Below, piece after piece: positions 15,847 through 44,424 of a stretch of 64,000 nt of DNA. The DNA is taken from positions 11,330 to 75,329 of the forward strand of contig JARLHZ010000022.1 of NCBI GenBank assembly GCA_031291995.1. The letters run 5' to 3'. Within the stretch, counting starts at the first letter, position 1. Each line of letters opens with the position of its first letter. The notes under the pieces were generated by a model, which worked only from the letters and a program-made list of their open reading frames with translations, was not told the origin of the DNA and ran no database searches. The position numbers and the translations under genes are program-made. Origin of the DNA: Candidatus Doudnabacteria bacterium. Lineage in GTDB: Bacteria; Patescibacteriota; Doudnabacteria; UBA920.

Positions 15847-16788
15847 ATGGATTTAAAACGAGCAAAAATTTTATTGACCGGCGGCCACGGATTTTTGGGA
15901 GAAAAGGTCTACAGCGAGCTTTTAAAAGCGGGCGTTTTGGCTGGCAATGTAAGCCGACCCCGGAGTAAAGAGCTTGATTTTAGGCTGGCCTCAGCTTGCG
16001 ATAAAGCCGTTAGTGGGCGGGATTTGGTTATTCATTTGGCGGCCAGCGTCGGCGGCATCGGGTTTAACCAAAATCATCCGGGTCAATTATTTTATGATAA
16101 TGCCATAATGGGCATTAATTTAATCGAGGCTTCGCGCAAAGCCGGGGTTAAAAAGTTTGTACAAGTGGGGACTGTATGTGCTTACCCAAAAGTTCCGGAG
16201 CATATTCCGTTTCGTGAAGACGATTTATGGAAAGGTTATCCTGAAGAAACCAATGCCCCGTACGGTTTAGCCAAACTGATGCTTTTGGAAATGCTTCAGG
16301 CTTATCGGCGCGAATATGGCTTTAATGGAATTTATTTATTACCGGTAAATTTATACGGCCCCGGTGATAATTTTAAGCCGGAATCGTCCCATGTTATTCC
16401 GGCTTTGATAAAAAAATTTGTCGAGGCCGCCAAAAATCATAATTCGGAAGTTGTGGTTTGGGGTTCAGGTAAAGCGTCGCGTGAATTTTTATATGTTGAC
16501 GATGCCGCACGGGCCATTGTTTTAGCTGCGCGAAAATACGACAAGCCCTACCCTGTCAACATCGGATCCAGCAATGAATTAAAAATCAAGGAGCTTGTAG
16601 CGCTTATCGCAAAAATCACCGGGTTTAAAGGCGAGATTGTTTGGGACGCAGCCAAGCCCGATGGCCAACCCCGCCGTAAGCTCGACGTAAGTCGGGCCAA
16701 AAAGGAGTTTGATTTTATATCTAAAGTTGAGTTTAAATATGGTTTGGGGAAAACAATTGCATGGTATAAGCAAAATTACCATAAATAA
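15847..16788 (+). CDS. fcl: GDP-L-fucose synthase (GDP-4-keto-6-deoxy-D-mannose 3,5-epimerase/4-reductase). A ColC-type GDP-colitose synthase cannot be excluded.
   Basis: 313 aa SDR. 'KPDGQPRRKLDVSRAKK.FDF' compares with Fcl 'KPDGTPRKLLDVSRL'. The N-terminal NAD-binding motif is 'ILLTGGHGFLG'. It is adjacent to gmd. Confidence 0.7.
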   Translation: MDLKRAKILLTGGHGFLGEKVYSELLKAGVLAGNVSRPRSKELDFRLASACDKAVSGRDLVIHLAASVGGIGFNQNHPGQLFYDNAIMGINLIEASRKAGVKKFVQVGTVCAYPKVPEHIPFREDDLWKGYPEETNAPYGLAKLMLLEMLQAYRREYGFNGIYLLPVNLYGPGDNFKPESSHVIPALIKKFVEAAKNHNSEVVVWGSGKASREFLYVDDAARAIVLAARKYDKPYPVNIGSSNELKIKELVALIAKITGFKGEIVWDAAKPDGQPRRKLDVSRAKKEFDFISKVEFKYGLGKTIAWYKQNYHK

Positions 16789-16871: not shown

Positions 16872-17117
16872 ATGCCTGAAATAAAACCAAATGAAGTTTA
16901 TACTACGGAAGAAAGTCGAGTATTATTGAAGATTAGCAATAGCACCATTAAACGGATGCTGAAGAGTGGATTATTGCGTGCCAATAAAGTAGGAAAACAA
17001 TACCGGATTTTGGGACACGAACTCCTGAGATTGGTTTCGCCGGAAATTGAAGAAAAAGCAGTTGATGTTTACCAAAAAATTAAGACAACCGCCAGAGAAA
17101 AAACCAAAAATTGGTAA
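16872..17117 (+). CDS. Helix-turn-helix DNA-binding protein (excisionase/MerR-like HTH_17)
   Basis: The first ATG is at 16872 (MPEIKPNEVYTTEESRVLLKISNSTIKRMLKSGLLRANKVGKQYRI). This is an excisionase-family HTH signature. The ORF-track start at 16851 overlaps the terminator. Confidence 0.45.
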   Translation: MPEIKPNEVYTTEESRVLLKISNSTIKRMLKSGLLRANKVGKQYRILGHELLRLVSPEIEEKAVDVYQKIKTTAREKTKNW

Positions 17118-17195: not shown

Positions 17196-18662
17196 ATGGA
17201 TCATAACGAACAGGCAGGTAAGAATTTTGCTTGGCTATCAGCCGCCCAGCTCGGAACCCGCATTCTTGGGGCGGCGTTTTTTATTTTTCTTTCGCGAAAA
17301 TTATTGGAAACCGGAGTCGGGGAGTACAGCTTTGTTTCTTCTTTTGTGCCCTTTTGGTTTATTTTAGTGGATTTCGGCGGCGCCGCGTATTTATTCCGCG
17401 AGTGGACCCATGGCAAAAAAACCGCGGCGGAAATTAAAGACGACTTCCACCAGTTGTTCACGCTCAGGTTGTTGATTGTACTGGCAATTGGTATACCGTT
17501 TTTAACGGTAAATTATTTTATAAACCGCCAGGTTTTGGGCTCCTTGGTTTTGTTTTACATTTCCATGTATTTAGCCATGTTCACAAACCTTTTGGATTTG
17601 TATTTTCAATCGCAAAACCAGTATCGGTATCTGGCAGTCAGACAAGTAATTGAGAAAACCACCGCCGTAGCGGCAGGCGTGGTTTTGCTCCTGATTCATC
17701 CTTCGGTCATAATGGTATTTGTTGCAATTTTAATAAGCCAATTGGCGAGCATTGCCTATTATTATTTGGCAACTTCGCCCTTTGGCATAAAATTAGTTTT
17801 GCGTAAAGAGTATGCCAAAAAGTTATTCATTAAAGGAATGCCTTTTTTATTTATTGGAATTTTTGCATCCCTTTATGCCAAAATTGATGTGACCATGCTC
17901 AGGTATATGGACAATTTTCAGACCGTCGGTTACTATGGCGCGGCCTACAAGTTTATGGATTTTACGGCGCTTTTTTCATCATTGTTCATTTCAGCCATTT
18001 TTCCCGTGCTATCGCCACTTTGGCAGGGCGGCAAGGATAGTCTGGCTTTTAACGATTTTTTTCAGAAATGTTTTCGGATTTTATTTTCCGCCGGCTTGCT
18101 GGTCGCCTTGTTTTTAATTGTGGCCGCGCCTTTGCTTATAAAAATATTTTTTCCCGCTTCTTTCGGCCCCTCCGTACTGGCCCTGAGGATTTTGGCAATT
18201 GGGCAGACGTTGGCGTTTTTAAGCGCGATTTTCAGTACGATGCTGATTATTGAAGGGCGCGAAAAAATCGGTTTGGCTATAATTATTTTTGGAGCGGTAT
18301 TCAATATTGTTCTCAATTTTATTTTAATTCCCCGCTTTTCCCTGTATGGCTCGGCGTGGGCTACCGTCATTGCCGAAATGGGAAATCTGTATCTCCTTCA
18401 GCATTTTGTCTCATGGAAAAAACCGGTCAACTTGCTGTTTAAGATTGTCAGCGTCGCTGGCGTAAACACCGTAATTTTTGTGTTTTTAAAGTTTACCGGA
18501 CTGACAAACAGCCTGCTGGCCGGGACCGTTATTCTATTGACGAACGCCGTAATCTTATTTACAGTTAAACTATTGGAAAAACAGGATGTCGCTCTCTTTG
18601 TTAACCCGTTTTTAGGCAAAGTTAAAACTTTATTTGGCCCTTTAATAAGTAACATTTTTTAA
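17196..18662 (+). CDS. wzx: Oligosaccharide/polysaccharide flippase (Wzx, MOP superfamily)
   Basis: 488 aa with about 12-14 TM helices, typical PF01943/PF13440 topology. It sits within the glycan locus. Confidence 0.7.
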   Translation: MDHNEQAGKNFAWLSAAQLGTRILGAAFFIFLSRKLLETGVGEYSFVSSFVPFWFILVDFGGAAYLFREWTHGKKTAAEIKDDFHQLFTLRLLIVLAIGIPFLTVNYFINRQVLGSLVLFYISMYLAMFTNLLDLYFQSQNQYRYLAVRQVIEKTTAVAAGVVLLLIHPSVIMVFVAILISQLASIAYYYLATSPFGIKLVLRKEYAKKLFIKGMPFLFIGIFASLYAKIDVTMLRYMDNFQTVGYYGAAYKFMDFTALFSSLFISAIFPVLSPLWQGGKDSLAFNDFFQKCFRILFSAGLLVALFLIVAAPLLIKIFFPASFGPSVLALRILAIGQTLAFLSAIFSTMLIIEGREKIGLAIIIFGAVFNIVLNFILIPRFSLYGSAWATVIAEMGNLYLLQHFVSWKKPVNLLFKIVSVAGVNTVIFVFLKFTGLTNSLLAGTVILLTNAVILFTVKLLEKQDVALFVNPFLGKVKTLFGPLISNIF

Positions 18663-18663
18663 T

Positions 18664-19476
18664 ATGAAAGTCGTCATTTTGTGCGGCGGGGAAGGTACCC
18701 GCATGAAGGAAGAAACCGAATTTAAACCCAAGCCGCTTGTCTTAGTCGGTGGCAAGCCGATTTTGTGGCATATTATGAAAATGTATGCCCATTATGGTTA
18801 TAATGAGTTTATTTTGACCCTGGGTTATAAAGGCGAAATGATAAAGGATTATTTTTTGAACCAGAATCGATATCTTAACGATTTTACCTTGGACACAAAA
18901 TCAGGCAAAGTCGATTATCATAACAACGAGTGCGATGATTTTCAGATCACCTTCGTTGAAACCGGTCTAAAGAGTTTGACCGGAGAACGGGTCAGGCGCG
19001 CTAAAAAATTTATCGAAGGGGAGGATTTTATGGTCACATACGGCGACGGCCTGGCCAATATTGATATTGCCAAGTTGGCGGAGTTTCATAAATCGCAGGG
19101 GACATTAGGGACAATCAGCGGTGTCCATCCCATTACCAGATTCGGCGTGCTGTCCATAAACGAGGACAACAAGAAAGTGGAAAAATTCCGACAGTACGGG
19201 GTCATTGACGAAGATATGAGCCCCAAGCAGATACACGAAGCCCGTAAAAGTTATATGAATGATTTTATTAACGGCGGCTTTATGGTGTTTAAAAACAGTG
19301 TCCTTAATTACGTCCACGAAAACAGCATGATTGAGGAGGCTTTTCCTCTTTTGGCCAAAGAAGGCAAATTGTCAGTCTACGAGCATACCGGTTTATGGAA
19401 AGCCATGGACACTTACAAGGACGTGGAGGAAATGAATATACTGTGGCAAAAAGATCCGTTTTGGAAAGTCTGGTAA
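18664..19476 (+). CDS. rfbF: Glucose-1-phosphate cytidylyltransferase
   Basis: 270 aa, alignable end to end with Salmonella RfbF. '[41 protein letters not shown]' matches '[41 protein letters not shown]'. The C-terminal 'DPFWKVW' matches 'APWKTWE'. Confidence 0.85.
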   Translation: [270 protein letters not shown]

Positions 19477-19553
19477 GCCGCGGATTGGACGCGGATAGCT
19501 GCGCGGATTAAGCGCGGAATCTGAATTCGATTATAACTGCGGGCTTGGCATAA

Positions 19554-20540
19554 ATGAAAAACTTAAATTTTATGAGCGAGTCATGGTCGGGAAAAAACGT
19601 GCTGGTGACCGGCGGTACCGGTTTGGTCGGGTCGCATTTGACGGAAAGGCTTTTGGAGCTCGGAGCTAAGGTTTTTGTATTGGATATTGTTTTGGAAGCG
19701 AATTCTTATTTTGCTTCCAAAAAGCTGGCTGATAAAGCCGGACTTTTTATGGTTGATTTGCGGAATTTTGAGGGAGTGAAAAAAGTCATTGCGGAAAATC
19801 AGATCAACTACATTTTCCATTTGGGCGCGCAGGCGCTGGTGCCGGTGGCATTAGAACAGCCGATGGAAACTCTGGACGCCAATGTTATGGGTACGGTTCA
19901 TGTGCTGGAAGCGGCGCGGCAGCTGGGAACGGTGAGCGGCATAGTGGTTGCTTCATCGGACAAGGCTTACGGCAAGGATTGCATTAACGTCAAAGAAGAC
20001 CAAAAACTGGCCGGCGACCACCCTTATGATGTGTCCAAGACCTGTGCCGATTTAATTTCTACAACCTATTTTAAAACGTATAATTTGCCGGTGGCCGTAG
20101 CCCGCTTTGGCAATATTTTCGGGCCGGGCGATTTACATTTTGACCGGATTGTGCCGGGAGTTATGGAATCGCTGATAAAAAATCAGGAATTGCAAATCCG
20201 CAGCAATGGGAAATTTCGTCGGGATTATTTATACGTTAAGGACGTGGCGGAAGGCTATATCAAGATGGCTCAAAAAGCCGAAGAAATTAAAGGCGAGGCC
20301 TTTAATTTTAGCACCAACTGGAATTTTTCCGTCACTGAACTGGTGGAAAAAATCGGCCAGATTCTGGGACGGCAGGTTCATTACAAAATCTTGGACACCC
20401 AAAAAAACGAAATTCCCGAACAGAGTCTGAACTGGGATAAGGCCAAAAAAGTTTTGGGCTGGGAACCGGAATGTTCTTTTGAGAAGGGAATAGAGGAAAC
20501 CGTTAACTGGTATAATAACTATTTTTCCGGAAAGGATTAG
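19554..20540 (+). CDS. rfbG: CDP-glucose 4,6-dehydratase-like SDR
   Basis: 328 aa. 'PMETLDANVMGTVHVLEAARQLG...ASSDKAYG' compares with RfbG 'PIETYSTNVMGTVHLLE...TSDKCY'. The motif is 'VLVTGGTGLVGSHL'. Confidence 0.65.
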   Translation: MKNLNFMSESWSGKNVLVTGGTGLVGSHLTERLLELGAKVFVLDIVLEANSYFASKKLADKAGLFMVDLRNFEGVKKVIAENQINYIFHLGAQALVPVALEQPMETLDANVMGTVHVLEAARQLGTVSGIVVASSDKAYGKDCINVKEDQKLAGDHPYDVSKTCADLISTTYFKTYNLPVAVARFGNIFGPGDLHFDRIVPGVMESLIKNQELQIRSNGKFRRDYLYVKDVAEGYIKMAQKAEEIKGEAFNFSTNWNFSVTELVEKIGQILGRQVHYKILDTQKNEIPEQSLNWDKAKKVLGWEPECSFEKGIEETVNWYNNYFSGKD

Positions 20541-20543
20541 TCT

Positions 20544-21422
20544 ATGAAGCTTCTTCTAACGGGGGCGGGAGGGTTTATCGGAAAAAATTTGATCCAATCC
20601 GATTTGGCGAAAAAACATCAGATAATTGCCCCTTCTAGATTGCAACTGGATTTAATGGACGAAAAGGCGCTTAAAGAATTTTTTTTCCGAAACCAAGTTG
20701 ACTGCGTAATACACGCGGCCGGCAAGCCCGGGCACAGGAACGCTAAAGATCCGAGCAACATTTTTTACAGCGATACGCGGATGTTCCTGAATCTTTTACA
20801 AAATTCTGATCGCTACAAAAAAATGATTGTGTTAAGTTCCGGAGCAGTTTACGACCAGAGGTTTGCGATTGATAAGGTCAAGGAGTCGGACTATAAGTTG
20901 CGTCTGCCAGCTGATGAACACGCTTTATTTCGTAGGGTCTCGGCCGATTATATAGGGCGATCGGACAAAATCGTGGAGCTTAGGATTTTTGGCATCTTCG
21001 GTCCTTATGAAGATTATGCTATCCGCTTTATTTCCAACGCCATCTGCAAATGCCTGTTTAATTTACCCATTACCATCAAACAAAACCGGATGTTTGATTA
21101 TATTTATGTTAAAGATTTGCCCGGTATTTTAGAAAATATTTTACAAACTAGCGATATGAGCGGCGCTTATAATTTAACTCCCGATGAGCCCATTGAGCTA
21201 TTGCAGTTGGCGGAAATGGTAAAAAATTTATCCGACAAAAATGTGCCGATTATCGTCCAAAAATCCGGCATGGGGCCGGAATACAGCGGCAATAACGAAA
21301 AAATTAAACGGGACATTAATTACAATTTACGTCCCTTGCCGGAGGCAGTGGAAGAATTATATAAATGGTACAAAGAGAATTTTTCAACCCTAGATCAAAC
21401 AAAACTTTTAACCGATAAATAA
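20544..21422 (+). CDS. NAD-dependent epimerase/dehydratase family protein (candidate sugar 4-reductase/epimerase)
   Basis: 292 aa with a 'LLLTGAGGFIGKNL' Rossmann motif. It lies between rfbG and the NeuB-like gene. Confidence 0.55.
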   Translation: MKLLLTGAGGFIGKNLIQSDLAKKHQIIAPSRLQLDLMDEKALKEFFFRNQVDCVIHAAGKPGHRNAKDPSNIFYSDTRMFLNLLQNSDRYKKMIVLSSGAVYDQRFAIDKVKESDYKLRLPADEHALFRRVSADYIGRSDKIVELRIFGIFGPYEDYAIRFISNAICKCLFNLPITIKQNRMFDYIYVKDLPGILENILQTSDMSGAYNLTPDEPIELLQLAEMVKNLSDKNVPIIVQKSGMGPEYSGNNEKIKRDINYNLRPLPEAVEELYKWYKENFSTLDQTKLLTDK

Positions 21423-21434
21423 TTAATACTATAT

Positions 21435-22523
21435 ATGCAAAGAGATATATTTGAAGATCTGTTCGTTCTGGAAATGGCCAGTAATCACTTGGGAAGCCTG
21501 GACAGGGCGCTAAAGATTGTGGAGCAGCACTCTAAAATAGTTAGGTTCAACAACGTACGCGCGGCTATAAAGCTGCAATTCCGCGACGTTGATAATTTTG
21601 TACACAAGAATTTTACTGACCGCAAGGAAATTCGCTACATCCGCAGGACCCTGGAAACAAAAATGTCCAAAGAAGATTACGGGGTATTGGTGGAAGCCAT
21701 TAAAAAGAGCGGTTGCATCCCCATGGCAACGCCTTTTGACGAGAAGTCTGTGGATTTGTGCGTGGAATTTAACATGCCGATTATTAAGGTTGCCAGCGCG
21801 GACAGTAATGACTGGATGCTCTTGGAAAAAATCGCTTCGACCAAAAAACCTGTTATTGTATCCGTAGGCGGATTGTCCCTAAAAGATATGGATGATATGG
21901 TGACTTTTTTTGAGCACCGCAATACGACCCTGGCCATTAACCACTGTGTTGCCGCATATCCCCACGAAGACTCGGAATGCGAGTTGGACCAGATAGATTT
22001 CCTCAAAAACCGCTTCCCTGACCACACTATCGGCCTATCCACACACGAATATCACGATTGGTATTCTTCGCTGCTTATCGCTTATGGCAAAGGCGCCCGC
22101 ACTTTTGAGCGGCACATAGATATTGACGAAGGCGGGGCGGAAGTGGCAAAATATTCTTCCCTTCCGGAACAAATAGATGTTTGGTTTAGAGCTTACAACA
22201 AGGCCAGGGAAATGTGCGGAACTGCCAAAACTGAACGCAGGGTGCCGTTGGAACGGGAGTCAAAATATTTGGACGGTTATATTCGAGGGGTCTATGCCAA
22301 GCATGACCTTAAGAAAGGGGATATTTTGATGGAAGAGGATATTTATATGGCCATTCCCCTCCAGAAAGGCCAGATTTCCAGCCGGGAATTAATGCTCGGA
22401 AAGTATGGGCATAAAATGATTGCCGACTGTAAAGCCGACGAGCCAATTAAAATTGATATAATAGACACTCCTTACGCCCATAATGAAGAATTGAAAAAAA
22501 CAATTTATGGCAGGGGTCTCTAA
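21435..22523 (+). CDS. NeuB-family (N-acylneuraminate/nonulosonate synthase-like) protein with C-terminal SAF domain
   Basis: 362 aa. 'MATPFDEKSVDLCVEFNMPIIKVASADSNDWMLLEKIASTKKPVIVSVGGLS...INHCVAAYPHEDSECELDQIDFL...IGLSTHE' follows the NeuB TIM-barrel pattern. The C-terminal SAF is 'LKKGDILMEEDIYMAIP'. Confidence 0.7.
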   Translation: MQRDIFEDLFVLEMASNHLGSLDRALKIVEQHSKIVRFNNVRAAIKLQFRDVDNFVHKNFTDRKEIRYIRRTLETKMSKEDYGVLVEAIKKSGCIPMATPFDEKSVDLCVEFNMPIIKVASADSNDWMLLEKIASTKKPVIVSVGGLSLKDMDDMVTFFEHRNTTLAINHCVAAYPHEDSECELDQIDFLKNRFPDHTIGLSTHEYHDWYSSLLIAYGKGARTFERHIDIDEGGAEVAKYSSLPEQIDVWFRAYNKAREMCGTAKTERRVPLERESKYLDGYIRGVYAKHDLKKGDILMEEDIYMAIPLQKGQISSRELMLGKYGHKMIADCKADEPIKIDIIDTPYAHNEELKKTIYGRGL

Positions 22524-22529
22524 AAACAG

Positions 22530-24338
22530 ATGATTAAAGTTTCCGATTATATTTTCCATCGATTGCATAAAGTCCACGGTGTGGATCAGGTGTTTATGAT
22601 TACAGGAGGTGGCGCCATGCATTTAAACGATGCCATTGGCCGTTGTGAAGGCTTAAAATTTATCTGCAACCACCATGAACAAGCCTGCGCCATTGCCGCG
22701 GAGGGTTATGCGCGCACCACAGGAAAGTTGGCGGCGGTAAATGTCACCAGCGGTCCCGGAGGTACGAACACCTTGACGGGCGTGCTTGGGCAATGGACCG
22801 ATTCCGTACCTGTAATTTATATTTCCGGCCAGGTCAAGTTTGAAACTACAATTTCGTCCTGTCCCGATTTGGGTTTGCGCCAGCTTGGCGATCAGGAATT
22901 TAATATAATTGACGTTGTCCGGCCATTCACTAAATTCGCCGCAATGGTCACGGATAAAAACGATATTAAAAAATTTCTTGACCAGGCTGTCCATTTAGCC
23001 ACGCATGGACGTCCCGGGCCGGTATGGCTGGATATCCCCATGGACGTGCAGGGGGCTCTGGTGGATGAAAAAAAATTAGGTGAATTCGCTATGACGGAAA
23101 GTTCCGCGGACGCAGTTCCACTTGAGTCGGAAGTTGGCAAAGTCATCGAATTGCTTGGGCAAGTCAAGCGGCCGGTGCTGGTTTTGGGGCGGGGCGTGCG
23201 AATTGCCGGAGCGCGGGATTTAGCCTTGGCATTGGCCAAGAGGATAGGCCTGCCTTTGCTCGGTACTTTTAACGCTTATGATTTGATTCCGGCCAGCCAT
23301 CCCAATTATGCGGGAAGGATTGGGACTTTAGGCGATCGCGCCGGAAATTTCGCCCTGCAAAATTCCGACTTGTATATTTCCGTGGGCAGTCGTAATAATT
23401 TGCGGCAGGTCAGCTACAACTGGCAGTCATACGCACGGGTCGCAAAAAAAATTGTCGTGGATATAGACCCTGCCGAACTTGCTAAACCTACCTTGATTCC
23501 CGATATCCCAATTTTGGCCGATGCTAAAGTTTTTTTGGAATTGCTCGGCGGGAAATTAAAATCCGCTACCTTGCCGGATTGGTCGGAGTGGAATGCCTGG
23601 TGTCAAAAACGCAGGAAAAGTTATCCCGTGGTCTTGCCCGAATATAGTGATGATAGCATGGGGGTCCATCCTTACTATTTTATGCAACGCCTGACCCAGG
23701 CCTTGGAGCCGGGAGCGGTGGCGGTGGCCGGGGATGGGACTGCCTGCGTCGCTTTGTTCCAGGCCGGGGAAGTCAAGGAAGGCCAGACGATTTTTTGGAA
23801 TTCCGGCTGCGCGGCTATGGGTTATGATTTACCGGCTGCCATCGGCGCGTGTATTGCAAATAAAAAGAGCACCGTATGCATAGCGGGGGACGGCAGCCTG
23901 CAGTTAAATATCCAGGAACTGGAAACAGTGGCTTTTAATAAACTTCCGTTAAAAATATTTTATTTGAATAACGGCGGCTACCAGTCCATTAAGCAGACCC
24001 AGGCCAATTATTTTCCGGATAATTTTATAGGTTGCAGCCCGGATAGCGGGATTGGCTTTCCCGATATTGTCAAAGTGGCTCGGGCTTACGGTCTAAAAAC
24101 CGAAATAATCGATAATCATAAAAATTTGGATAAAATTGTCCGGGCGGTACTAGAGGCTGAGGTTCCGGTGGTTTGTGAGGTAAGGTTAAGGGCTGATTAT
24201 GTTTTTTCCCCTAAATTATCTTCAAAAAAATTATCTGACGGAAGGATGATTTCCAAGCCCTTGGAAGATATGTATCCGTTTTTAAGCCGCGAAGAATTTA
24301 AATCTAATATGATAATTGAGCCTTTAGCGGAGGAATAA
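22530..24338 (+). CDS. Thiamine-diphosphate-dependent acetolactate-synthase-like enzyme (YerE-like candidate sugar C-branching enzyme)
   Basis: 602 aa with the three-domain ALS/IlvB architecture. The TPP motif is 'IAGDGSLQLNIQELET...NNGGYQSI'. The N-terminal 'ITGGGAMHLNDAI' carries the PYR-domain glutamate region. It sits inside a CDP-deoxysugar gene set. Confidence 0.75.
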   Translation: MIKVSDYIFHRLHKVHGVDQVFMITGGGAMHLNDAIGRCEGLKFICNHHEQACAIAAEGYARTTGKLAAVNVTSGPGGTNTLTGVLGQWTDSVPVIYISGQVKFETTISSCPDLGLRQLGDQEFNIIDVVRPFTKFAAMVTDKNDIKKFLDQAVHLATHGRPGPVWLDIPMDVQGALVDEKKLGEFAMTESSADAVPLESEVGKVIELLGQVKRPVLVLGRGVRIAGARDLALALAKRIGLPLLGTFNAYDLIPASHPNYAGRIGTLGDRAGNFALQNSDLYISVGSRNNLRQVSYNWQSYARVAKKIVVDIDPAELAKPTLIPDIPILADAKVFLELLGGKLKSATLPDWSEWNAWCQKRRKSYPVVLPEYSDDSMGVHPYYFMQRLTQALEPGAVAVAGDGTACVALFQAGEVKEGQTIFWNSGCAAMGYDLPAAIGACIANKKSTVCIAGDGSLQLNIQELETVAFNKLPLKIFYLNNGGYQSIKQTQANYFPDNFIGCSPDSGIGFPDIVKVARAYGLKTEIIDNHKNLDKIVRAVLEAEVPVVCEVRLRADYVFSPKLSSKKLSDGRMISKPLEDMYPFLSREEFKSNMIIEPLAEE

Positions 24339-24340
24339 CC

Positions 24341-25015
24341 ATGAAAACTTTATTTATTACCGGAGGCCATGGGGGCATTGGACAGGCTATTGTTCAGGAA
24401 TTTCAGGCGCGGAACTATAAAATTATCTCGCCAAGCAGTCGGGAGTTGGATTTATCCCAGGTCGAGTCTATTAAATCCTATTTTTCAGCTTCGGTTCCGG
24501 ATATTGATGTGTTAGTTCATAGCGCGGGCATAAATTTTCCCAAACCCCTGGAGGAAATTAATGGTGAGGAATTTGAGAAGACTCTTGCCGTAAATGCAAC
24601 CAGTTTGTTTTATTTGGCGCAGATTTTTTTGCCCCGCCTTAAAGCAAAAAATGGCGGACATATTTTGGCCGTAAATTCAATCTGGGGAATTATTTCTAAA
24701 CCAGGGCGGCTGTCTTACGCCATGTCAAAACAGGCCTTGAACGGTTTGGTAAAAACATTGGCCTTGGAGCTGGCTCCCCATAATATTAAAGTCAACTCCG
24801 TCGCTCCCGGCTTTGTCGATACAAAACTTACTAGGCAAAACAATACCGAGGAGCAGATTAAATCGATTGTAAAACAGGTACCACTTGGCCGCTTGGCTAA
24901 GCCCGAAGAGATCGCAAGGGCCGTTTATTATTTATGCTCAGATGATAACAATTATATCACTGGACAAAATTTGGTAATTGACGGCGGTTTTACCGCTGGG
25001 ATTTTTGGAAATTAG
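24341..25015 (+). CDS. Short-chain dehydrogenase/reductase (SDR, classical)
   Basis: 224 aa. The motifs are 'LFITGGHGGIGQAI', 'YAMSKQALNGLVKTLALELA' (YxxxK) and a C-terminal 'VIDGGF'. A strong GGAGG Shine-Dalgarno sequence lies upstream. Confidence 0.75.
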   Translation: MKTLFITGGHGGIGQAIVQEFQARNYKIISPSSRELDLSQVESIKSYFSASVPDIDVLVHSAGINFPKPLEEINGEEFEKTLAVNATSLFYLAQIFLPRLKAKNGGHILAVNSIWGIISKPGRLSYAMSKQALNGLVKTLALELAPHNIKVNSVAPGFVDTKLTRQNNTEEQIKSIVKQVPLGRLAKPEEIARAVYYLCSDDNNYITGQNLVIDGGFTAGIFGN

Positions 25016-25019
25016 TTTT

Positions 25020-26159
25020 ATGGGACAATTTGATTTTAAAATCCAGGATGAAAGTTTTACCCTGCCGGATAAATATTCGGAGTTGTCTGATTTTAAAGTG
25101 GATTCAGTTCCGCGCCCTTATAAAGTCGCCTGGTGGGACGAGGATCCGGCGCAAATCATTAACAGGGAAATGGCTGACGCAGCCGGGAATGTTTTGGTCA
25201 TTGACGAAAAATTGCGGCAATTATTTTCCGCCGCATTTGGTTTTTCACCGGAGAGAATTTTTTCTTTGGTTGCGGACGAGGAGCATAAAATTTTAGATAC
25301 AGCCGCCGCTTTGTTTGATTTTTTGCAGGCTCGGGGCTTTTCTAAAAGCGATAGGCTGATAGTGGTTGGAGGCGGAGTAACACAGGACGTTGGCGGGTTT
25401 GTCGGTGGCATTTATAAGCGCGGCCTAAACTGGGTATTTTACCCGACAACTCTTTTATCAATGTGCGACAGTTGTATAGGCGCCAAAGCGGGATTAAATT
25501 TTAAGGGCGTCAAAAATCAGCTGGCAATTTTTTCCGCTCCAAGGGAAGTGGTAGTAAACCCTCAATTCCTCAAGACTTTAAATGAGCGGGAATTCCATTC
25601 CGGTTTGGGGGAAATCCTAAAGTTGCATGTTACCGGAGGCGGGGGATTGCTGGAAAACTACCAAAAAATAGTGGCTGACGGCATAGTTAAGGATTTTACC
25701 GGATATAAGTCCCTCATCTTCGGATCGCTTTTTGTAAAAAAAGCCGTCATAGAGAAAGATGAATTTGAACAGGGTTTAAGGAAAAGTCTAAACTACGGCC
25801 ACACCTTTGGCCACGCTATTGAGACGCTGACCGGTTATAACATTCCTCATGGCCAAGCAGTCGCGGCCGGCATGATTATTGTTAACCAACTCGCACATGA
25901 GCGCGGGTTGCTGCGTGCGGATAAAAATCTTTTGATGCAAAATTTATGCCTTAAGCTTCTGGATGCGCCAACCAGGCGCAAAATTAAATGTTTATCCGGA
26001 GATAATTTTCTTGAATTATTGAGGCAGGACAAGAAAGCTTCGTCCGGCCGGATTAACCTGGTGTTTTTAAAAGACTTAGGAGAAACAATTTTTGTAAATT
26101 ATGAAATTAATAAAGACCTGTCCAAATCGGTGGATAAGGTAATTACGAGTATCTTTTGA
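25020..26159 (+). CDS. 3-dehydroquinate synthase-like (sugar phosphate cyclase superfamily) enzyme
   Basis: Start set at the ATG at 25020 (MGQFDF...) to avoid overlap with the SDR. 'VVGGGVTQDVGGFVGGIYKRGLNWVFYPTTLLSMCDSCIGAKAGLNF' compares with AroB '[46 protein letters not shown]'. The motif 'EFHSGLGEILKLHV' compares with 'ELASGLAEVIKYGI'. Confidence 0.7.
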   Translation: MGQFDFKIQDESFTLPDKYSELSDFKVDSVPRPYKVAWWDEDPAQIINREMADAAGNVLVIDEKLRQLFSAAFGFSPERIFSLVADEEHKILDTAAALFDFLQARGFSKSDRLIVVGGGVTQDVGGFVGGIYKRGLNWVFYPTTLLSMCDSCIGAKAGLNFKGVKNQLAIFSAPREVVVNPQFLKTLNEREFHSGLGEILKLHVTGGGGLLENYQKIVADGIVKDFTGYKSLIFGSLFVKKAVIEKDEFEQGLRKSLNYGHTFGHAIETLTGYNIPHGQAVAAGMIIVNQLAHERGLLRADKNLLMQNLCLKLLDAPTRRKIKCLSGDNFLELLRQDKKASSGRINLVFLKDLGETIFVNYEINKDLSKSVDKVITSIF

Positions 26160-26248
26160 CGATTAATGGTGTCTGCGACAGGCGCGATTTTGCTTAAACC
26201 CGTTTTTTTACTATAATTATGTAGGTGTTTATAATTATTTACGAAACA

Positions 26249-27472
26249 ATGCCGACAAAAATACAGTCGAATATGAGAGTCCCTTACGGCCTGTCCGTAC
26301 ATGGGCAGGAAGAAATAGACGCTGTTGTTGAAGTTTTAAAAGGCAATACCGCCCTGGGCGACAAGGTGAAGGAGTTTGAAAATAAGGTTGCCAAAATGTT
26401 CGGGAAAAAGTATGGGGTAATGGTTAACTCCGGCTCCAGTGCCAACCTTTTGGCTCTTGAACTTCTTAATTTACCCCGCGGCAGCGAAGTCATAACTCCC
26501 GTTTTAACTTTTTCCACCACTGTCGCGCCGATTGTCCAAAAGGGCTTGGTTCCGGTGTATGTCGATATCAACCCGCAAACATATATTGCGAACCTTAACC
26601 AGGTCGAAAAAGCCATCGGCAAAAAAACCAAAGCTTTGATGATCCCGTCGTTAATGGGGAACATTCCAAACTTAAAGCGACTGCAGGCAATAGCGAAAAA
26701 ATACAAACTTTGGCTGATTGAAGATTCCTGCGATACCTTGGGCGGCAGTTATAACGGGCGGCCGAGCGGGACATATTCGGATATTTCCACAACAAGTTTT
26801 TACGGATCTCATGTTATTAACGGCGCGGGAGGGGGAGGCATGATTTGCGTTAATAATCCGGAGTGGGTGGATCGTTTGGTGGTACTTCGGGGTTGGGGCA
26901 GGCAGTCTTCTTTGTTTGGCGAAAAATCCAATTCCGAATTGCTCGCCAATCGTTTTCAAGGAAAAATTGACGGTACCCCTTACGATAATAAATTTATTTT
27001 CAGTGAAATCGGCTATAATTTTTTACCTCTGGAAATTTCGGCCGCCTTCGCGCTGGTCCAGCTAAAGAAGTATCCAAAATTTTTGGCTCTCCGCCAAAAA
27101 TATTTTGCGGAAATGTACAAATTTATAGAAAAAAAACATCAAAAATATTTTCTCCTGCCCAAACAAACGCCCAATACCAAAACCGCCTGGCTGGCTTTCC
27201 CCCTTATTATCAAACCCGGCGCGCCGTTTACCCGCCTGGACATAGTGACGTTTTTGGAAAATAATAATGTCCAGACCAGACCGGTGTTTACCGGAAGCAT
27301 TTTAAAGCAGCCCGGCTTTAAAAATATCAGGCATCGCAATGCCGTCAATAATTTTCCCCATTCGGAAGACGTCATGAAGAACGCTTTTGTCGTAGCCTGC
27401 CATCATGGCTTGTCGGATCGGCAAATTAAATATTTGCAGGAATGCTTTAATGAATTTTTAGCAGCTTTTTAA
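26249..27472 (+). CDS. RfbH/ColD-type PLP/PMP-dependent sugar 3-dehydrase (DegT family), lacking the E1 [2Fe-2S] cysteine motif
   Basis: The first ATG is at 26249 (the ORF track starts at a GTG, 26225). 'NSGSSANLLALELL', 'WLIEDSCDTLG', 'TTSFYGSHVING' (His where aminotransferases carry the Schiff-base Lys) and 'QTRPVFTGSILKQPGF' parallel RfbH/DdhC. The region matching the RfbH Cys cluster (CYCAPGCDNTCGKRF) reads 'WGRQSSLFGEKSNSELLANRF'. Confidence 0.7.
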   Translation: MPTKIQSNMRVPYGLSVHGQEEIDAVVEVLKGNTALGDKVKEFENKVAKMFGKKYGVMVNSGSSANLLALELLNLPRGSEVITPVLTFSTTVAPIVQKGLVPVYVDINPQTYIANLNQVEKAIGKKTKALMIPSLMGNIPNLKRLQAIAKKYKLWLIEDSCDTLGGSYNGRPSGTYSDISTTSFYGSHVINGAGGGGMICVNNPEWVDRLVVLRGWGRQSSLFGEKSNSELLANRFQGKIDGTPYDNKFIFSEIGYNFLPLEISAAFALVQLKKYPKFLALRQKYFAEMYKFIEKKHQKYFLLPKQTPNTKTAWLAFPLIIKPGAPFTRLDIVTFLENNNVQTRPVFTGSILKQPGFKNIRHRNAVNNFPHSEDVMKNAFVVACHHGLSDRQIKYLQECFNEFLAAF

Positions 27473-27473: not shown

Positions 27474-28424
27474 ATGACAAATCCGAGTACTCCTCCCATA
27501 TTAAGTATTTGCATACCGACTTTTTCCCGCTCTCATTTTCTGCGGGAATGCCTGGACAGTATTACCGCGCAGTTTTCGGACGAGGCTATCCGTTCGGTTG
27601 TGGAAATCGCGGTTTCCGACAACGCGAGTACGGACGATACCGAAGCGGTGGTAAAGAGTTACCAAAAAAAATATCCCAACATCCGTTACAGCCGTAATGC
27701 CGAAAATTTGGGTTTTGACCGCAACGTGGCTGCGGCGCTTGCGCTTGGTGGTGGCAGGTTTTTATGGCTGATGAGCGATGATGAAATGCTGGCGCCGGAG
27801 GCTTTAAAATTTATTTTGCCTTTGCTGCTGGGGCATCCGCAAGTGGCTTATTTTTGCGTCAACCACGGCGGCCTGCCGCGGGACACGGAATTTGAGGTCT
27901 TTTCGGATGGCAGCGCCTGGCTGGATAGTTTGGGTTTGACCGGCGGTTTAATTTCGCAGAATATTTACAACCGGGATTTTTTGCCGGCAGATATCTCCCG
28001 GTATTACGGCAATTACTGGATACATTATTCGCTGGCGTTTGAAGTTATGGCCGCGCATCCGGCCATGCTGGTAAAAAAATTATTTTTGGATCCGCCACAA
28101 GAGCGTGAGTGCGGCTGGGCGGAAGGCGGGCACGCCCTGACTGTTTATAACAGTTTAAATGCCATCTTAAAAGGTTTGCCGGCTTTAGGTTACCGGCCAT
28201 CGGCCGTGCGCCGCCGGCTGCGGGATATGGCCAAAGGGCTGGCGAGGCAGGTTGCTTCCTCTAAAATACACAATTTAAAAATTTCCGCGGCTGTTTTTAA
28301 AAAACTTTGCCGCGATTATGGGGCATATCCCTGGTGGCTGCTGCCGGCGCTGGCGGTTTATTTATGCCCCAACGCCTGGCTGCGGCCGTTGCGGGGTGCC
28401 GTAAAAGCCGCCGGGGTAATTTGA
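27474..28424 (+). CDS. Glycosyltransferase family 2
   Basis: 316 aa. 'LSICIPTFSRSHFLRECLDSITAQ...SDNASTDDT' is the GT-A DXD-type N-terminus. Confidence 0.7.
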   Translation: MTNPSTPPILSICIPTFSRSHFLRECLDSITAQFSDEAIRSVVEIAVSDNASTDDTEAVVKSYQKKYPNIRYSRNAENLGFDRNVAAALALGGGRFLWLMSDDEMLAPEALKFILPLLLGHPQVAYFCVNHGGLPRDTEFEVFSDGSAWLDSLGLTGGLISQNIYNRDFLPADISRYYGNYWIHYSLAFEVMAAHPAMLVKKLFLDPPQERECGWAEGGHALTVYNSLNAILKGLPALGYRPSAVRRRLRDMAKGLARQVASSKIHNLKISAAVFKKLCRDYGAYPWWLLPALAVYLCPNAWLRPLRGAVKAAGVI

Positions 28425-28443
28425 TCATTATACAGTTTGCTAT

Positions 28444-29493
28444 ATGGTGCCAAAAAAATTAGTAGTCTTGGATTTTGACGAGCCGCGCCTGCTGGAGAAT
28501 AAGATTTTCAATCCGGCGGAAGCCATAAAAGTCAGCCATACTATTTTGCCGACTTGTTATTTGCAGCGCCAAGCCGCGTTGCTGGGCATTGCTATGGTGA
28601 CCCCCGACGTCTACCTGCGCGGCCGTCCGCTTCCGGCTTTAATGCTGTCCCACCTGCATACCTCCTGGACCAAACGGCTGATTGGCGCCGGCGCCCGCCC
28701 GATAATTTTGACCTGCCAGGAGTCGCCGTTCATTGCCACGCGGTTTTACGCTAACTTAAAAAATTACAGCGGACTATATAAACATTCCTTTGTGTTCGCG
28801 GGAATGAGAAAAAGGTTGTCGTCGAAAACCCAGTATCGCCAGATGTTTTTCCCCCAGGCCTATAACCCGGCGGTTATTGCGGAAGTGCCGTTCGGACAAA
28901 GAAAATTTTTGACAATGATCAGCGGCAATAAGCGGATGGGCAATTGGAAAAAAACTTTGCTGATAAAATTCATGTATGGCTGGGGTATAAAAGAAATTTA
29001 CTCATTGCGCCAGCGCGTAATTAATTTGATGGCCACCCGCGGGGGTTTTGACCTGTATGGCGTTGGCTGGGACAGGGGCGGCTTAAATCCGGGCGACACG
29101 TCCAATATAAAAAAAGTTTATCGGGGTAAAGTGGACGACAAAACCGAAACACTGCGGCAATACAAGTTCGCTTTTTGTTTTGAAAACAGCGTTTTTCCCG
29201 GCTACGTCACGGAAAAAATTTTTGACGTGATGTTCGCCGGCTGCGTGCCGGTGTATAACGGCGCGCCGGACATTAAAAATTTTGTGCCGGCCGGCGCCTT
29301 TATTGACGTCCGCGATTTTTCCGGCCTGGACCGGCTGGCGGAGTTTTTGGAAAATATGGACGAATCCGTTTATAATAGATATATGGCAAACATAAAAAAA
29401 TATTTGGCTTCGCCGGAGTTTTTAAAATTTTCCCAGGAAAATTTTGCTGAAAATATTTTGGGGATTTTGGAACAGGAGTTCAATAATGAGTAA
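28444..29493 (+). CDS. GT10-like alpha-1,3-fucosyltransferase family glycosyltransferase
   Basis: 349 aa. 'YKFAFCFENSVFPGYVTEKIFDVMFAGCVPVY' matches the FucT signature (FxxxFENS...GYxTEK). The locus also carries a GDP-fucose supply (gmd and fcl). Confidence 0.6.
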   Translation: MVPKKLVVLDFDEPRLLENKIFNPAEAIKVSHTILPTCYLQRQAALLGIAMVTPDVYLRGRPLPALMLSHLHTSWTKRLIGAGARPIILTCQESPFIATRFYANLKNYSGLYKHSFVFAGMRKRLSSKTQYRQMFFPQAYNPAVIAEVPFGQRKFLTMISGNKRMGNWKKTLLIKFMYGWGIKEIYSLRQRVINLMATRGGFDLYGVGWDRGGLNPGDTSNIKKVYRGKVDDKTETLRQYKFAFCFENSVFPGYVTEKIFDVMFAGCVPVYNGAPDIKNFVPAGAFIDVRDFSGLDRLAEFLENMDESVYNRYMANIKKYLASPEFLKFSQENFAENILGILEQEFNNE

Positions 29494-30412
29494 AGTCACC
29501 ATTGCCGTCCCGACATACAACCGGCCGGAATTTCTGGCGGAAAGCCTTAGGAGTATTCTCAATCAGGCATTCCAGGATTTTGAAATAATTATTTTTGATA
29601 ACCACAGCGATTACGACGTACGGGCCGCCCTGAAAGCGAAGGCGCTGGACGACCCGCGCATCAGCCTGATCCAAACTCCGGTTAACCTGGGCGGCCCGGA
29701 AAATTTCCACCGAATTTTTCGCCAACGGTACGCTTCCGAATATGTCATGGTCTTCCACGACGATGACACCATGCACCCCGAACTGCTCTCGCGCCAGCTG
29801 AAAGTTATGGAGTCGCGCGCGGACGCGATTTGGGCCGGCACGGATTTGCGTTTTGTCCATCGCGGCGCGCGGATGGGAATTTTTGCGGAGGCGGGGCCGG
29901 AGATAAAATTTGGCGTTTATGATAAAGTCGGAATCGTGCGTCTGCTGCTGACTAATTTTAACCTGGCATTTGACACTGTGTTATATCGCAGCAGGTACCT
30001 GGAAGATATTGAGCCTTTCAACCGTGACTTTTCCAAGTGGGGGGACAGGCCGTACCTGGTTCGTTTGGCGGAAAAAGGCTCCGTAGTTGTACTTAAGGAG
30101 AGGCTGGTAAATTACCGGATGCATCCCGGCCAGGATTCCAAGCTGGCGCCGGTTGGCCAAGCAGATTTTATTTTTAAGCTTTATGGATTTTATCGCGACA
30201 ATCTTCCGCAGCCTTTACTGCCGGTGGACGAAAAATTATTCAGATCCTGGGCGGCAAACAACAGCGTACTGCCGGCGGCGGCCTTCGTAAAAAATTTTCA
30301 TGATTACCGAAAATTACTGTGGCAATTTAAAGACAAGGGTTTTTTTGATTACCGATACATTAATGCCCGGGGAATTTGGTATTTTTTAAAAGCGATTAAA
30401 AAATTCATCTGA
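29486..30412 (+). CDS. Glycosyltransferase family 2
   Basis: Start at the ATG at 29486 (MSKVTIAVPTYNRPEFLAESLRSILNQAFQDFEIIIFDNHSDYD). The ORF-track start at 29444 overlaps the upstream gene. Confidence 0.7.
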   Translation: MSKVTIAVPTYNRPEFLAESLRSILNQAFQDFEIIIFDNHSDYDVRAALKAKALDDPRISLIQTPVNLGGPENFHRIFRQRYASEYVMVFHDDDTMHPELLSRQLKVMESRADAIWAGTDLRFVHRGARMGIFAEAGPEIKFGVYDKVGIVRLLLTNFNLAFDTVLYRSRYLEDIEPFNRDFSKWGDRPYLVRLAEKGSVVVLKERLVNYRMHPGQDSKLAPVGQADFIFKLYGFYRDNLPQPLLPVDEKLFRSWAANNSVLPAAAFVKNFHDYRKLLWQFKDKGFFDYRYINARGIWYFLKAIKKFI

Positions 30413-41129: not shown

Positions 41130-41170
41130 ATATTAAGGCTGAAATAGTTATATAATACAATCAATCGAAG

Positions 41171-41200
41171 CCCGCGAGACTCATATGGTCTTGCGGGTTT
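41171..41200 (+). terminator. Intrinsic terminator (CCCGCGAGAC-TCATATG-GTCTTGCGGG + TTTT)
   Basis: 10-bp stem with one G-T wobble pair, followed by TTTTATTTT. Confidence 0.5.
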
Positions 41201-41204
41201 TATT

Positions 41205-41897: not shown

Positions 41898-41992
41898 TGT
41901 CATTCCTGCGAAGGCAGGAATCTTGCATTTATTCACTTGACCTAATGTTCAAATGTACGCTATTATGTACATATAAATATAATCCCCAATAT

Positions 41993-42563: not shown

Positions 42564-42567
42564 ATTT

Positions 42568-44420: not shown

Positions 44421-44424
44421 TTTT

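Follow-up and report, generated by a model that had tools for sequence, protein, structure and literature searches.

The gene set at the locus

We analyzed a stretch of 64,000 nucleotides (nt) from a contig of Candidatus Doudnabacteria bacterium, referred to as the window. The interval under study, positions 18664-27472, lies within a run of genes on the + strand with intergenic gaps of 1-89 nt. It carries eight genes, all on the + strand, which we associate with the biosynthesis of a branched-chain deoxysugar. From 5' to 3', their predicted products are an RfbF-like glucose-1-phosphate cytidylyltransferase, a CDP-glucose-type 4,6-dehydratase, an extended short-chain dehydrogenase/reductase (SDR) of 292 aa (SDR292), a NeuB-family synthase dependent on phosphoenolpyruvate (PEP), a YerE-like carboligase dependent on thiamine diphosphate (ThDP), a classical SDR of 224 aa (SDR224), an AroB-like sugar-phosphate phospholyase, and an E1/RfbH-like 3-dehydrase dependent on pyridoxamine 5'-phosphate (PMP). 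Around the ThDP gene, the NeuB-like gene and the pair of AroB-like and SDR224 genes are packed with gaps of 2-12 nt. A single sequencing project contains near-identical contigs in several of its runs (L001-L003 among them; loci and contigs are designated by L numbers). For the AroB-like gene, the start called on one of these, L001, corresponds to the ATG at 25020.

A first-pass annotation had listed five genes. Its open reading frames (ORFs) are real, lie on the + strand at or near the positions given for them, and have strong profile matches. The list was too short, however. It overlooked the NeuB-family gene (21435-22523) and the AroB-like gene (25020-26159), and it left out the gene for SDR292 (20544-21422).

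Related loci were collected around relatives of the ThDP enzyme. In a scan with one genome per species, at least 574 species had such a relative. The best 80 loci, from many phyla and with ThDP homologues of 49-64% identity, were examined with 10 kb flanks; 50 of them, in which the ThDP gene has 5 kb or more of sequence on either side, are termed full loci. According to tblastn with the window proteins, homologues of RfbF occur in 53 of the 80 loci, of the dehydratase in 57, of SDR292 in 48, of the RfbH-like protein in 51, of SDR224 in 34, of the AroB-like protein in 31 and of the NeuB-like protein in 16. Clustering of the ORFs and a scan of representatives identified further recurrent neighbours: an aldolase of the HpcH/HpaI type (48 loci, mostly adjoining the ThDP gene), an ArnC-like glycosyltransferase of family 2 (GT2), a GtrA-like protein and two families of HAD phosphatases. 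The window was searched for several of these. No gene for an HpcH aldolase or a HAD phosphatase was found in it by tblastn, and searches for GtrA, an ArnT-like protein and an FGGY kinase in the window also found none.

The ThDP-dependent enzyme

The ThDP-dependent enzyme (22530..24338, + strand) has the N, M and C domains of the TPP_enzyme families. Among solved structures, JanthE (8RPH; 401 bits, residues 2-595, 36% identity over 590 aa) is by far its closest relative. The next solved matches are 5AHK (239 bits), which we take to be a YerE homologue from Pseudomonas protegens (PpYerE), and acetohydroxyacid synthase I (AHAS I) from E. coli (234 bits), the best-scoring acetolactate synthase. 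A C-terminal tail (FSPKL...PLED) is common to the window enzyme and JanthE; the printed alignment with 5AHK extends only to query residue 563, and the matches to acetolactate synthases end at about residues 551-561. The ThDP motif of the window enzyme is GDG (453-455)...NN (480-481), and JanthE has CDG instead. The catalytic Glu50 is invariant in 21 homologues. The best 120 database matches have 57-72% identity and are spread across phyla. In a plasmid collection, no match was obtained at 1e-80.

By its best NCBIfam name (TIGR00118, biosynthetic acetolactate synthase large subunit, 344.9 bits), the enzyme could be an ordinary acetolactate synthase of branched-chain amino acid biosynthesis, located in a glycan cluster by chance, and some sources annotate its homologues in this way. 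That score is far below the cut-off (538.35), and the enzyme is also far under every cut-off of the remaining NCBIfam acetolactate synthase models. JanthE is matched much better than AHAS I. The ThDP gene is flanked by the NeuB-like gene and that for SDR224; no small-subunit gene adjoins it, and no small-subunit, ilvC, ilvD or other ilv family was detected among the Pfam-scanned ORFs of the window. In all 80 loci, the homologues are found within sugar cassettes. On the basis of the cut-offs, the JanthE match and the gene context, we rejected this assignment, which we regard as extremely improbable. The scores and the neighbours likewise do not group the enzyme with IlvB/IlvG and a regulatory partner. 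As the first-pass annotation had proposed, we predict from sequence and context that it is a YerE-like carboligase, the branching enzyme of the pathway, and not IlvB.

JanthE is a YerE-like enzyme that joins 2-keto acids to ketones, with its physiological substrates yet unknown. It accepts pyruvate, and YerE-like enzymes accept cyclic ketones in vitro (PMC12188165). We consider it probable that the window enzyme performs YerE-type branching on a CDP-4-keto-3,6-dideoxyhexose.

Proposed synthesis of the CDP-sugar acceptor

The RfbF-like protein (18664..19476, + strand) aligns over its full length with the enzyme from Salmonella typhi (1TZF; residues 2-270 with 4-258, 43% identity, 203 bits). Its score with TIGR02623 (267.8 bits) is just under the cut-off of 300.25. 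For the 4,6-dehydratase (19554..20540, + strand), TIGR02622 is the best NCBIfam model (218.5 bits, cut-off 278.45), and the nearest solved relatives are the CDP-glucose 4,6-dehydratases 1WVG and 1RKX. Its motifs SSDK and YDVSK align with TSDK and YSNSK of these enzymes, so that S-D-K and YxxxK are kept. These alignments agree with the original assignment of RfbF, as a near full-length match to the Salmonella protein, and RfbG as the entry enzymes. Because both enzymes score under their NCBIfam equivalog cut-offs, we can only infer the exact nucleotide and hexose of the pair.

The RfbH-like protein (26249..27472, + strand) is closer to Yersinia E1 (3BCX; 240 bits, 36% identity) than to ColD (176 bits, 31% identity), and its score with PRK15407 is 339.7 (cut-off 423). 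The His in SFYGSHVI aligns with His220 of E1, which is Lys in the H220K mutant (3BB8); the catalytic Lys of an ordinary aminotransferase is absent. Where E1 reads RDWGRDCYCAPGCDNTC, the window protein reads RGWGRQSSLFGEKSNSELL, with Ser, Leu or other residues replacing the cysteines of the CxC...C motif. Three of the four ligands of the iron-sulfur (Fe-S) cluster are absent, and only the equivalent of E1 Cys193 is invariant in the clade. The motif following the His is AGGGG instead of GEGG; ColD has MEGG. The first-pass annotation had noted the His in place of Lys and the lack of the [2Fe-2S] cysteine cluster, and both stand. It had also considered such a sugar uncommon for this kind of organism, which turned out otherwise. 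Among the best 120 database matches (69-100% identity), SFYGSH[IV][IV] occurs in all 120, and in 119 the cluster region is free of Cys (for the 120th, the pattern search for the cysteine region failed). Those that are named belong to Paceibacteria, Microgenomates, Azambacteria, Taylorbacteria, Vogelbacteria and other lineages of the Candidate Phyla Radiation (CPR). On CPR contigs, the gene of this Fe-S-less clade forms a triad with those for an NTP-transferase and a 4,6-dehydratase; SDR genes come next, and there is no E3 reductase.

Among the 80 loci, 48 full-length E1-type homologues keep the His and the cysteine motif, and N-terminally truncated ORFs in L006 and L068 keep the cysteines as well. 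The Fe-S-less form is restricted to L080 (a metagenome-assembled genome (MAG) of Legionella, 53% identity) and L065 (a MAG of Verrucomicrobia, 49%); the Cys193 equivalent is Ala in both. Nine of the 80 loci code for a 239-aa FAD/NAD reductase beside RfbH. This protein has no ferredoxin domain, is encoded near a canonical Fe-S RfbH (L012, L013, L015, L016, L018, L019, L057, L061 and L064), in six of the nine loci directly downstream of it, and may be a shortened E3 partner. With this reductase family as the tblastn query, no homologue of an E3-like flavin reductase was found in the 64-kb window, in line with the absence of E3 noted at the outset.

The characterized 3-dehydratases listed in a 2022 review are E1, ColD and SpnQ only. 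ColD uses a hydrolytic, glutamate-dependent route for which no cluster is needed (PMC8987622). A ColD-like mechanism on a CDP-sugar would be the simplest reading of the RfbH-like enzyme, and we rate such hydrolytic turnover as an evenly balanced prediction. The enzyme might instead be an aminotransferase that yields a CDP-4-amino-4,6-dideoxyhexose, or a dehydrase that is reduced by an unlinked cellular reductant. SpnQ transaminates in the absence of its reductase, and the H220K variant of E1 is a transaminating enzyme as well (PMC8987622). Such a function would also fit the greater similarity to E1 than to ColD and the AGGGG motif in place of GEGG. Several points argue against it. The residue is His, not Lys, in 120 of the 120 relatives. 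With three of the four cluster ligands absent, there is no E1-style electron entry. A YerE-like enzyme requires a 4-keto acceptor, which a transaminase would remove, and the clade is found in triads of the dideoxyhexose type. We therefore consider these two alternatives improbable.

A third reading, in which the DegT-family and AroB-like proteins belong to a pathway resembling that of aminoshikimate or 3-amino-5-hydroxybenzoate (AHBA), was rejected. On CPR contigs, the RfbH-like gene follows those for the NTP-transferase and the 4,6-dehydratase, and in other loci it is a canonical E1 gene that accompanies the AroB-like gene.

The two SDRs

The first-pass annotation had assigned the SDR at 24341-25015 as YerF, the reductase that acts after branching. 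This protein, SDR224 (24341..25015, + strand), belongs to Pfam family adh_short_C2 (6.4e-52) and has the motifs TGxxxGIG, Ser and YxxxK. Its gene co-varies with the AroB-like gene, which it normally adjoins; the pair occurs together in about 32 loci. SDR224 is probably not the YerF equivalent; we rejected this assignment on account of the co-variation and propose that it is the ketoreductase of a donor module (see below). SDR292 (20544..21422, + strand; Pfam Epimerase, 9.5e-24) is the better candidate, because its gene is usually directly upstream of the ThDP gene, and this across phyla. It is likely the YerF/ErwF-type reductase of the side-chain ketone. The catalytic dyad of this family is unusual. 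In an alignment of 49 sequences (L005-L084), it is [H/Y]xxxK, with His in 34 and Tyr in 11.

The proposed keto acid donor

A "unifying scheme" has been proposed for sugars with an acyl branch. ErwE, MMAR_2332 and MyGE, which are YerE-like, add functionalized 2-keto acids to CDP-4-keto-3,6-dideoxyglucose (Steitz et al. 2022, PMC9306805). The donors are provided by pyruvate aldolases encoded in the same cluster, and a YerF-like reductase acts afterwards. The clusters covered are those for erwiniose (ErwE/F/I/J), caryophyllose (MMAR_2331/2332, with MMAR_2331 belonging to the aldolase/citrate-lyase family) and gastriose (MyGE/MygI/MygF). 4-Hydroxy-2-keto acids are the class favoured by ErwE (PMC9306805), and this enzyme does not accept pyruvate.

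The NeuB-family protein (21435..22523, + strand; Pfam NeuB, 3.5e-38, 131.9 bits) is distant from its characterized relatives. It scores 127 bits with the PseI model (cut-off 340) and 117 bits with the NeuB model (cut-off 400). The nearest solved relative is 3G8R, an uncharacterized protein from structural genomics (206 bits), compared to 76-90 bits for PseI, NeuB and LegI. It can be aligned with PseI (8H2C) at the STHE and ERH positions, which are conserved in the 17 NeuB-like sequences. NeuB enzymes condense PEP and an aldose to a 3-deoxy-2-ulosonic acid. This is a 4-hydroxy-2-keto acid, the class that an aldolase makes from pyruvate. Because its expected product class equals that of the aldolases and is the one preferred by ErwE, we propose that the NeuB-like protein is the donor synthase and makes a 3-deoxy-2-ulosonic acid, possibly its phosphate.

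Co-occurrence points in the same direction. Among the 50 full loci, 33 have an HpcH aldolase and 12 a NeuB-like protein, and none has both (hypergeometric P = 5e-8); the two do not occur together in any of the 80 loci. The full loci have either the AroB-like/SDR224 pair (20), a HAD phosphatase (16) or neither (14). In sister loci, the HAD gene adjoins the NeuB-like gene or the aldolase gene. It adjoins the NeuB-like gene in L006, L008, L011, L033, L051 and L052 and is near it in L065 and L092. A sugar kinase of the FGGY family (434-468 aa) is encoded between the AroB-like and NeuB-like genes in five of the six genome loci with both (L006, L038, L049, L052 and L066). This placement fits the need for a phosphate ester.

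The nearest CPR relatives show the same exchange. In L094 (ThDP enzyme 71% identical), the gene order is methyltransferase, a 294-aa SDR, HAD phosphatase, HpcH aldolase, ThDP enzyme, Fe-S-less RfbH-like protein, GT2, glycosyltransferase of family 10 (GT10) and GT2. In L092, it is Fe-S-less RfbH-like protein, 4,6-dehydratase, NTP-transferase, methyltransferase, a 293-aa SDR, NeuB-like protein, ThDP enzyme, FkbM and HAD phosphatase, with one GT2 and one GT10 elsewhere in the locus. The SDR of 29x residues, the ThDP enzyme and the Fe-S-less RfbH-like protein are constant, and the donor module is swapped (HAD plus HpcH aldolase in L094, NeuB plus HAD in L092). At L090/L091 (CPR contig JBGGGZ010000002.1, 3323-5022), the triad of Fe-S-less RfbH-like protein, NTP-transferase and 4,6-dehydratase is accompanied by a split transketolase (Transketolase_N and Transket_pyr/C), which stands in place of the YerE-like enzyme and may be an alternative ThDP-dependent branching enzyme.

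According to the first-pass annotation, the product would be of the yersiniose A type. In such a model, pyruvate would supply a two-carbon branch and SDR224 would be YerF. The NeuB-like and AroB-like genes, which that annotation did not include, would then belong to another sugar of the same glycan, such as an ulosonic acid or a cyclitol. The roles of YerE and YerF have been established (PMC9306805), JanthE takes pyruvate (PMC12188165), and some loci (e.g. L069) have only RfbF, the dehydratase, RfbH, SDR292 and the ThDP enzyme. In these loci there is no donor module, so pyruvate-type use does exist in the ThDP family. For the window, however, we regard this model as unlikely. The NeuB-like gene and the AroB-like/SDR224 pair surround the ThDP gene with minimal gaps. 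The NeuB-like protein is strictly exclusive with the aldolase, which is the donor supplier of the published scheme, and SDR224 tracks the AroB-like gene, not the ThDP gene. No CMP-ulosonate synthetase (NeuA/KdsB-like) was found among the Pfam-scanned ORFs of the cluster. The two overlooked genes point to a longer, functionalized keto acid instead of the two-carbon donor. We lean slightly towards a NeuB-derived keto acid, rather than pyruvate, as the donor.

The AroB-like phospholyase

The AroB-like protein (25020..26159, + strand) has TIGR04425 as its best model (309.4 bits, cut-off 400), followed by TIGR01357 for aroB (265.2 bits, cut-off 305). In 33 family members, the equivalents of the active-site residues of dehydroquinate (DHQ) synthase show a conservation of 97% or more. 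In the numbering of the Aspergillus nidulans enzyme, these presumably are R130, D146, K152, N162, E194, K197, K250, R264, N268, H271, H275, H287 and K356. The neighbours are sugar genes and not those of a shikimate context; in sugar cassettes, the AroB-like gene always adjoins that of a classical SDR. Members of the family are extended at the N-terminus by about 60 residues that the DHQ synthase fragment used for comparison does not have. Ser29, Tyr34 and Asp62 are conserved in this extension, and Cys152 is found where DHQ synthase has Ser. In the plasmid collection, the AroB-like query yielded only matches of 31-37% identity, annotated as aroB where any feature is listed.

The conserved residues favour an ulosonate phosphate resembling 3-deoxy-D-arabino-heptulosonate 7-phosphate (DAHP) as the predicted substrate, and we place the AroB-like step after the condensation for this reason. 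DHQ synthase oxidizes its substrate, eliminates phosphate and re-reduces the product. If the resulting enol were protonated and not cyclized, and if SDR224 reduced the ketone, a terminal-deoxy 3-deoxy-ulosonic acid would result. We propose, tentatively and with the balance somewhat against it, that the AroB-like protein and SDR224 deoxygenate the NeuB-derived donor without cyclizing it. The side chain of caryophyllose is reported to be 1,3,4,5-tetrahydroxyhexyl (structure as quoted in PMC5706390). Conversion of DAHP to 3,7-dideoxyheptulosonate, followed by decarboxylative addition and ketoreduction, would give exactly this chain. The alternative with a HAD phosphatase would leave a terminal CH2OH. 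Such a terminus is the gastriose pattern. A literature search found no paper that links caryophyllose with DHQ synthase-like genes, and a search for DHQ synthase together with acetolactate synthase and CDP-glucose dehydratase returned unrelated gene lists only.

The AroB-like protein could also be a true cyclase. A DAHP-like acid made by the NeuB-like protein would then be converted to a DHQ-like carbocycle and reduced by SDR224. The product would either be a building block in its own right or provide the ThDP enzyme with its ketone acceptor. Every catalytic and binding residue of DHQ synthase is conserved, TIGR04425 is named "phospholyase (cyclizing)", and the in vitro acceptance of cyclic ketones by YerE-like enzymes would be compatible with such an acceptor. 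Upon cyclization, though, the 2-keto acid is lost and the product is unusable as a ThDP donor. In 15 of the 50 full loci, the module replaces or accompanies the donor-supplying aldolases beside the ThDP gene. Even in loci without an AroB-like gene, the ThDP gene goes together with the CDP-dideoxyhexose genes, and we saw no enzyme that would activate a carbocyclic acid. We judge a cyclizing function to be quite unlikely.

Proposed pathway

We predict, with about even chances, that the interval forms the core for sugar synthesis within a Wzx/Wzy operon for a surface glycan. It would make a CDP-3,6-dideoxy-4-C-(polyhydroxyalkyl)hexose of the erwiniose/caryophyllose/gastriose kind and not plain yersiniose. 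The first-pass interpretation is retained in its outline (branching logic, Fe-S-less dehydrase, no E3); its YerF and its two-carbon product are not. The observed family assignments, motifs and co-occurrences are compatible with the following route, in which all substrates, the order of the two donor steps, the lack of cyclization and the ColD-like turnover are predictions.

The RfbF-like enzyme would form CDP-glucose, which the 4,6-dehydratase would convert to CDP-4-keto-6-deoxyglucose. The Fe-S-free E1-like enzyme would then strip the C-3 hydroxyl by PMP chemistry. Because an enzyme without the cluster cannot receive electrons, release would occur by ColD-style hydrolysis to the 4-keto-3,6-dideoxy product, and PMP would be regenerated by an amino donor. 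In parallel, the NeuB-like synthase would form a 3-deoxy-2-ulosonic acid by condensing PEP with an aldose, which is probably phosphorylated. The AroB-like enzyme would eliminate the terminal phosphate and SDR224 would reduce the ketone, yielding a terminal-deoxy keto acid. The YerE-like enzyme would decarboxylate this acid and add it to the C-4 ketone of the CDP-sugar, upon which SDR292 would reduce the new side-chain ketone. The sugar would finally be installed by the downstream glycosyltransferases.

A number of points weigh against this route. Nearly all NCBIfam matches are under the trusted cut-offs, so the actual substrates could be different ones, with a nucleotide that is not CDP and a hexose that is not glucose. 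The chemistry of all operon proteins is predicted from sequence. The YerE-likeness of the ThDP enzyme is judged by comparison with JanthE. SDR292 from the window has H126...R130 instead of Tyr...Lys, which makes its activity uncertain. An E3-like neighbour is found in only four of 35 canonical E1 loci, so a missing E3 is by itself weak evidence. The window does not have the FGGY kinase that is seen in most loci with NeuB-like and AroB-like genes, and the HAD and AroB modules coexist in L006 and L052 and are thus not strict alternatives. DHQ synthase chemistry normally ends in cyclization, and the enol intermediate cyclizes spontaneously; the proposed non-cyclizing outcome requires a new property of the AroB-like enzyme. 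We assume, from the A. nidulans structure, that K250 and R264 bind the carboxylate of DAHP.

It is tempting to speculate that two undescribed enzymologies are combined in one operon. One would be a CDP-hexose 3-dehydratase derived from E1 that has shed the Fe-S cluster and E3 and releases its product by ColD-like hydrolysis. The other would be a donor route of the type "condense, eliminate phosphate, reduce", which may involve a NeuB-like protein or HpcH aldolase, an AroB-like non-cyclizing phospholyase and an SDR, and in some loci also an FGGY kinase. That both apply is doubtful. If true, the donor route would yield terminal-deoxy 3-deoxy-ulosonic acids for YerE-like enzymes and would explain the methyl-terminated side chains of the caryophyllose type. 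The Fe-S-free and reductase-free E1 would be a simpler catalyst for CDP-3,6-dideoxyhexoses and would show how organisms with minimal redox metabolism keep deoxysugar synthesis.

Deoxysugars with a long branch, for example caryophyllose, shape how bacterial surfaces are recognized by hosts. Where their keto acid donors come from is known only in part, and in the published scheme the only enzymes invoked are aldolases. The operon and its relatives suggest that donor modules are exchangeable, with condensation by an aldolase or a NeuB-like protein and phosphate removal by a HAD phosphatase or by an AroB-like protein and an SDR. With such modularity, side-chain length and terminal chemistry could be predicted from sequence. 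The ThDP family, with 50-64% identity across many phyla, is a pool of ketone-accepting carboligases, which are of interest for tertiary alcohols, and the operon gives a rare view of the complexity of surface glycans in uncultured CPR bacteria.

The surrounding glycan cluster

A Pfam scan of the ORFs showed that the region of about 9.4-37.5 kb is a glycan cluster of the Wzx/Wzy type. It contains a Wzy_C-TPR protein, a glycosyltransferase of family 4 (GT4), a GDP-mannose 4,6-dehydratase, a Wzx flippase, several glycosyltransferases of families GT2, GT10 and GT1, methyltransferases and an initiating transferase (Bac_transf). The Wzx-type flippase (17196..18662, + strand; Pfam Polysacc_synt, 3.3e-28) is encoded by the first gene of the tight operon; this gene ends 1 nt before the RfbF-like gene. 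Directly downstream of the RfbH-like gene follow, according to Pfam matches, GT2, GT10 (fucosyltransferase-like) and GT2 glycosyltransferases (27474..30412, + strand). They are candidate transferases for the sugar product, and their order recurs directly after the cassette in L094.

A GDP-mannose 4,6-dehydratase (12903-13925; 460 bits), a 313-aa epimerase/reductase (15847-16788) and the GT10-like gene (28444-29493) indicate that the same glycan probably also contains a GDP-derived 6-deoxyhexose. At 9411-11693, a Wzy_C domain (O-antigen ligase/polymerase-like) is fused to C-terminal TPR repeats; this fusion is found again beside related cassettes on the CPR contigs L090 and L092. A small HTH_17 (excisionase-like) gene (16872-17117) is located inside the glycan operon just 5' of the Wzx gene and is kept in L001-L003. 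An 82-aa ORF (32394-32642) has a weak match to UbiA prenyltransferases (23.7 bits, cut-off 34.2) and could represent either a fragment of a gene or a small membrane protein. Upstream of the cluster is a gene for an IS200-like transposase (Y1_Tnp, 7997-8614). Downstream (39081-48108 and 53759-57892), a PIF1-like helicase, RadC, an N6/N4 DNA methylase and a fusion of the exonuclease VII large subunit with HRDC are encoded, and then a type IV pilus set (T2SSE ATPase, T2SSF and PilM). Across the window, the + strand carries almost all of the genes.

Comparison with known systems

The framework of this pathway is already published; the NeuB-like/AroB-like donor module and the Fe-S-free E1 clade are undescribed in the literature searched. 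Compared to yersiniose A from Yersinia pseudotuberculosis (DdhA-D, YerE, YerF), the window shares an RfbF-like cytidylyltransferase, a CDP-glucose-type 4,6-dehydratase, a PMP-dependent 3-dehydrase with His in place of Lys, and the predicted ThDP-dependent branching at C-4 followed by ketoreduction. It differs by the absence of E3 (DdhD) and of the Fe-S cysteines and by donor genes that imply a branch of more than two carbons. The nearest solved relative of its ThDP enzyme is JanthE and not 5AHK (239 bits), the presumed PpYerE.

With E1/E3 (RfbH/DdhC and DdhD/AscD) and SpnQ, the RfbH-like protein shares the closest sequence family, the match to His220 and, in the CPR clade, the equivalent of Cys193. 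The CxC...C cysteines are gone in the window protein and in 119 of its 120 relatives, and there is no E3 in the window. ColD, the GDP-4-keto-6-deoxymannose 3-dehydratase of the colitose pathway, is alike in its catalytic His for Lys and in having neither an Fe-S cluster nor a partner reductase. Its mechanism, in which a 3-deoxy-4-keto product is released by hydrolysis and glutamate regenerates PMP, is the precedent here (PMC8987622). In sequence it is further away (176 versus 240 bits), and the context in the window is a cytidylyltransferase and a CDP-glucose-type dehydratase, not GDP-mannose.

The AroB-like protein keeps the fold and the metal-, NAD- and substrate-binding residues of AroB and TIGR04425, and NAD-dependent phosphate elimination is expected. 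It differs in scoring under both cut-offs, in its N-terminal extension of about 60 residues, in having an SDR neighbour in sugar cassettes and in the proposed non-cyclizing outcome. The NeuB-like protein would follow the logic of NeuB synthases and HAD phosphatases as in the pathways via N-acetylneuraminate 9-phosphate (Neu5Ac-9-P) and KDN-9-P, namely formation of a 3-deoxy-2-ulosonic acid from PEP and an aldose (phosphate), with HAD neighbours in sister loci. Unlike NeuB, PseI and LegI, to which it is only distantly related (76-90 bits), it has no CMP-activating enzyme alongside, and its product is proposed to serve the ThDP enzyme.

The clusters of the unifying scheme are also counterparts. 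In common are the genes for a CDP-4-keto-3,6-dideoxyhexose, a YerE-like carboligase, an adjacent NAD(P)H reductase, a cluster-encoded enzyme for a 4-hydroxy-2-keto acid donor, and the location in a surface-glycan locus. In the window, a NeuB-family synthase takes the place of the pyruvate aldolase, the E1 has no Fe-S cluster and the host is a CPR bacterium. The window also adds an AroB-like enzyme and a classical SDR, which are not mentioned in PMC9306805.

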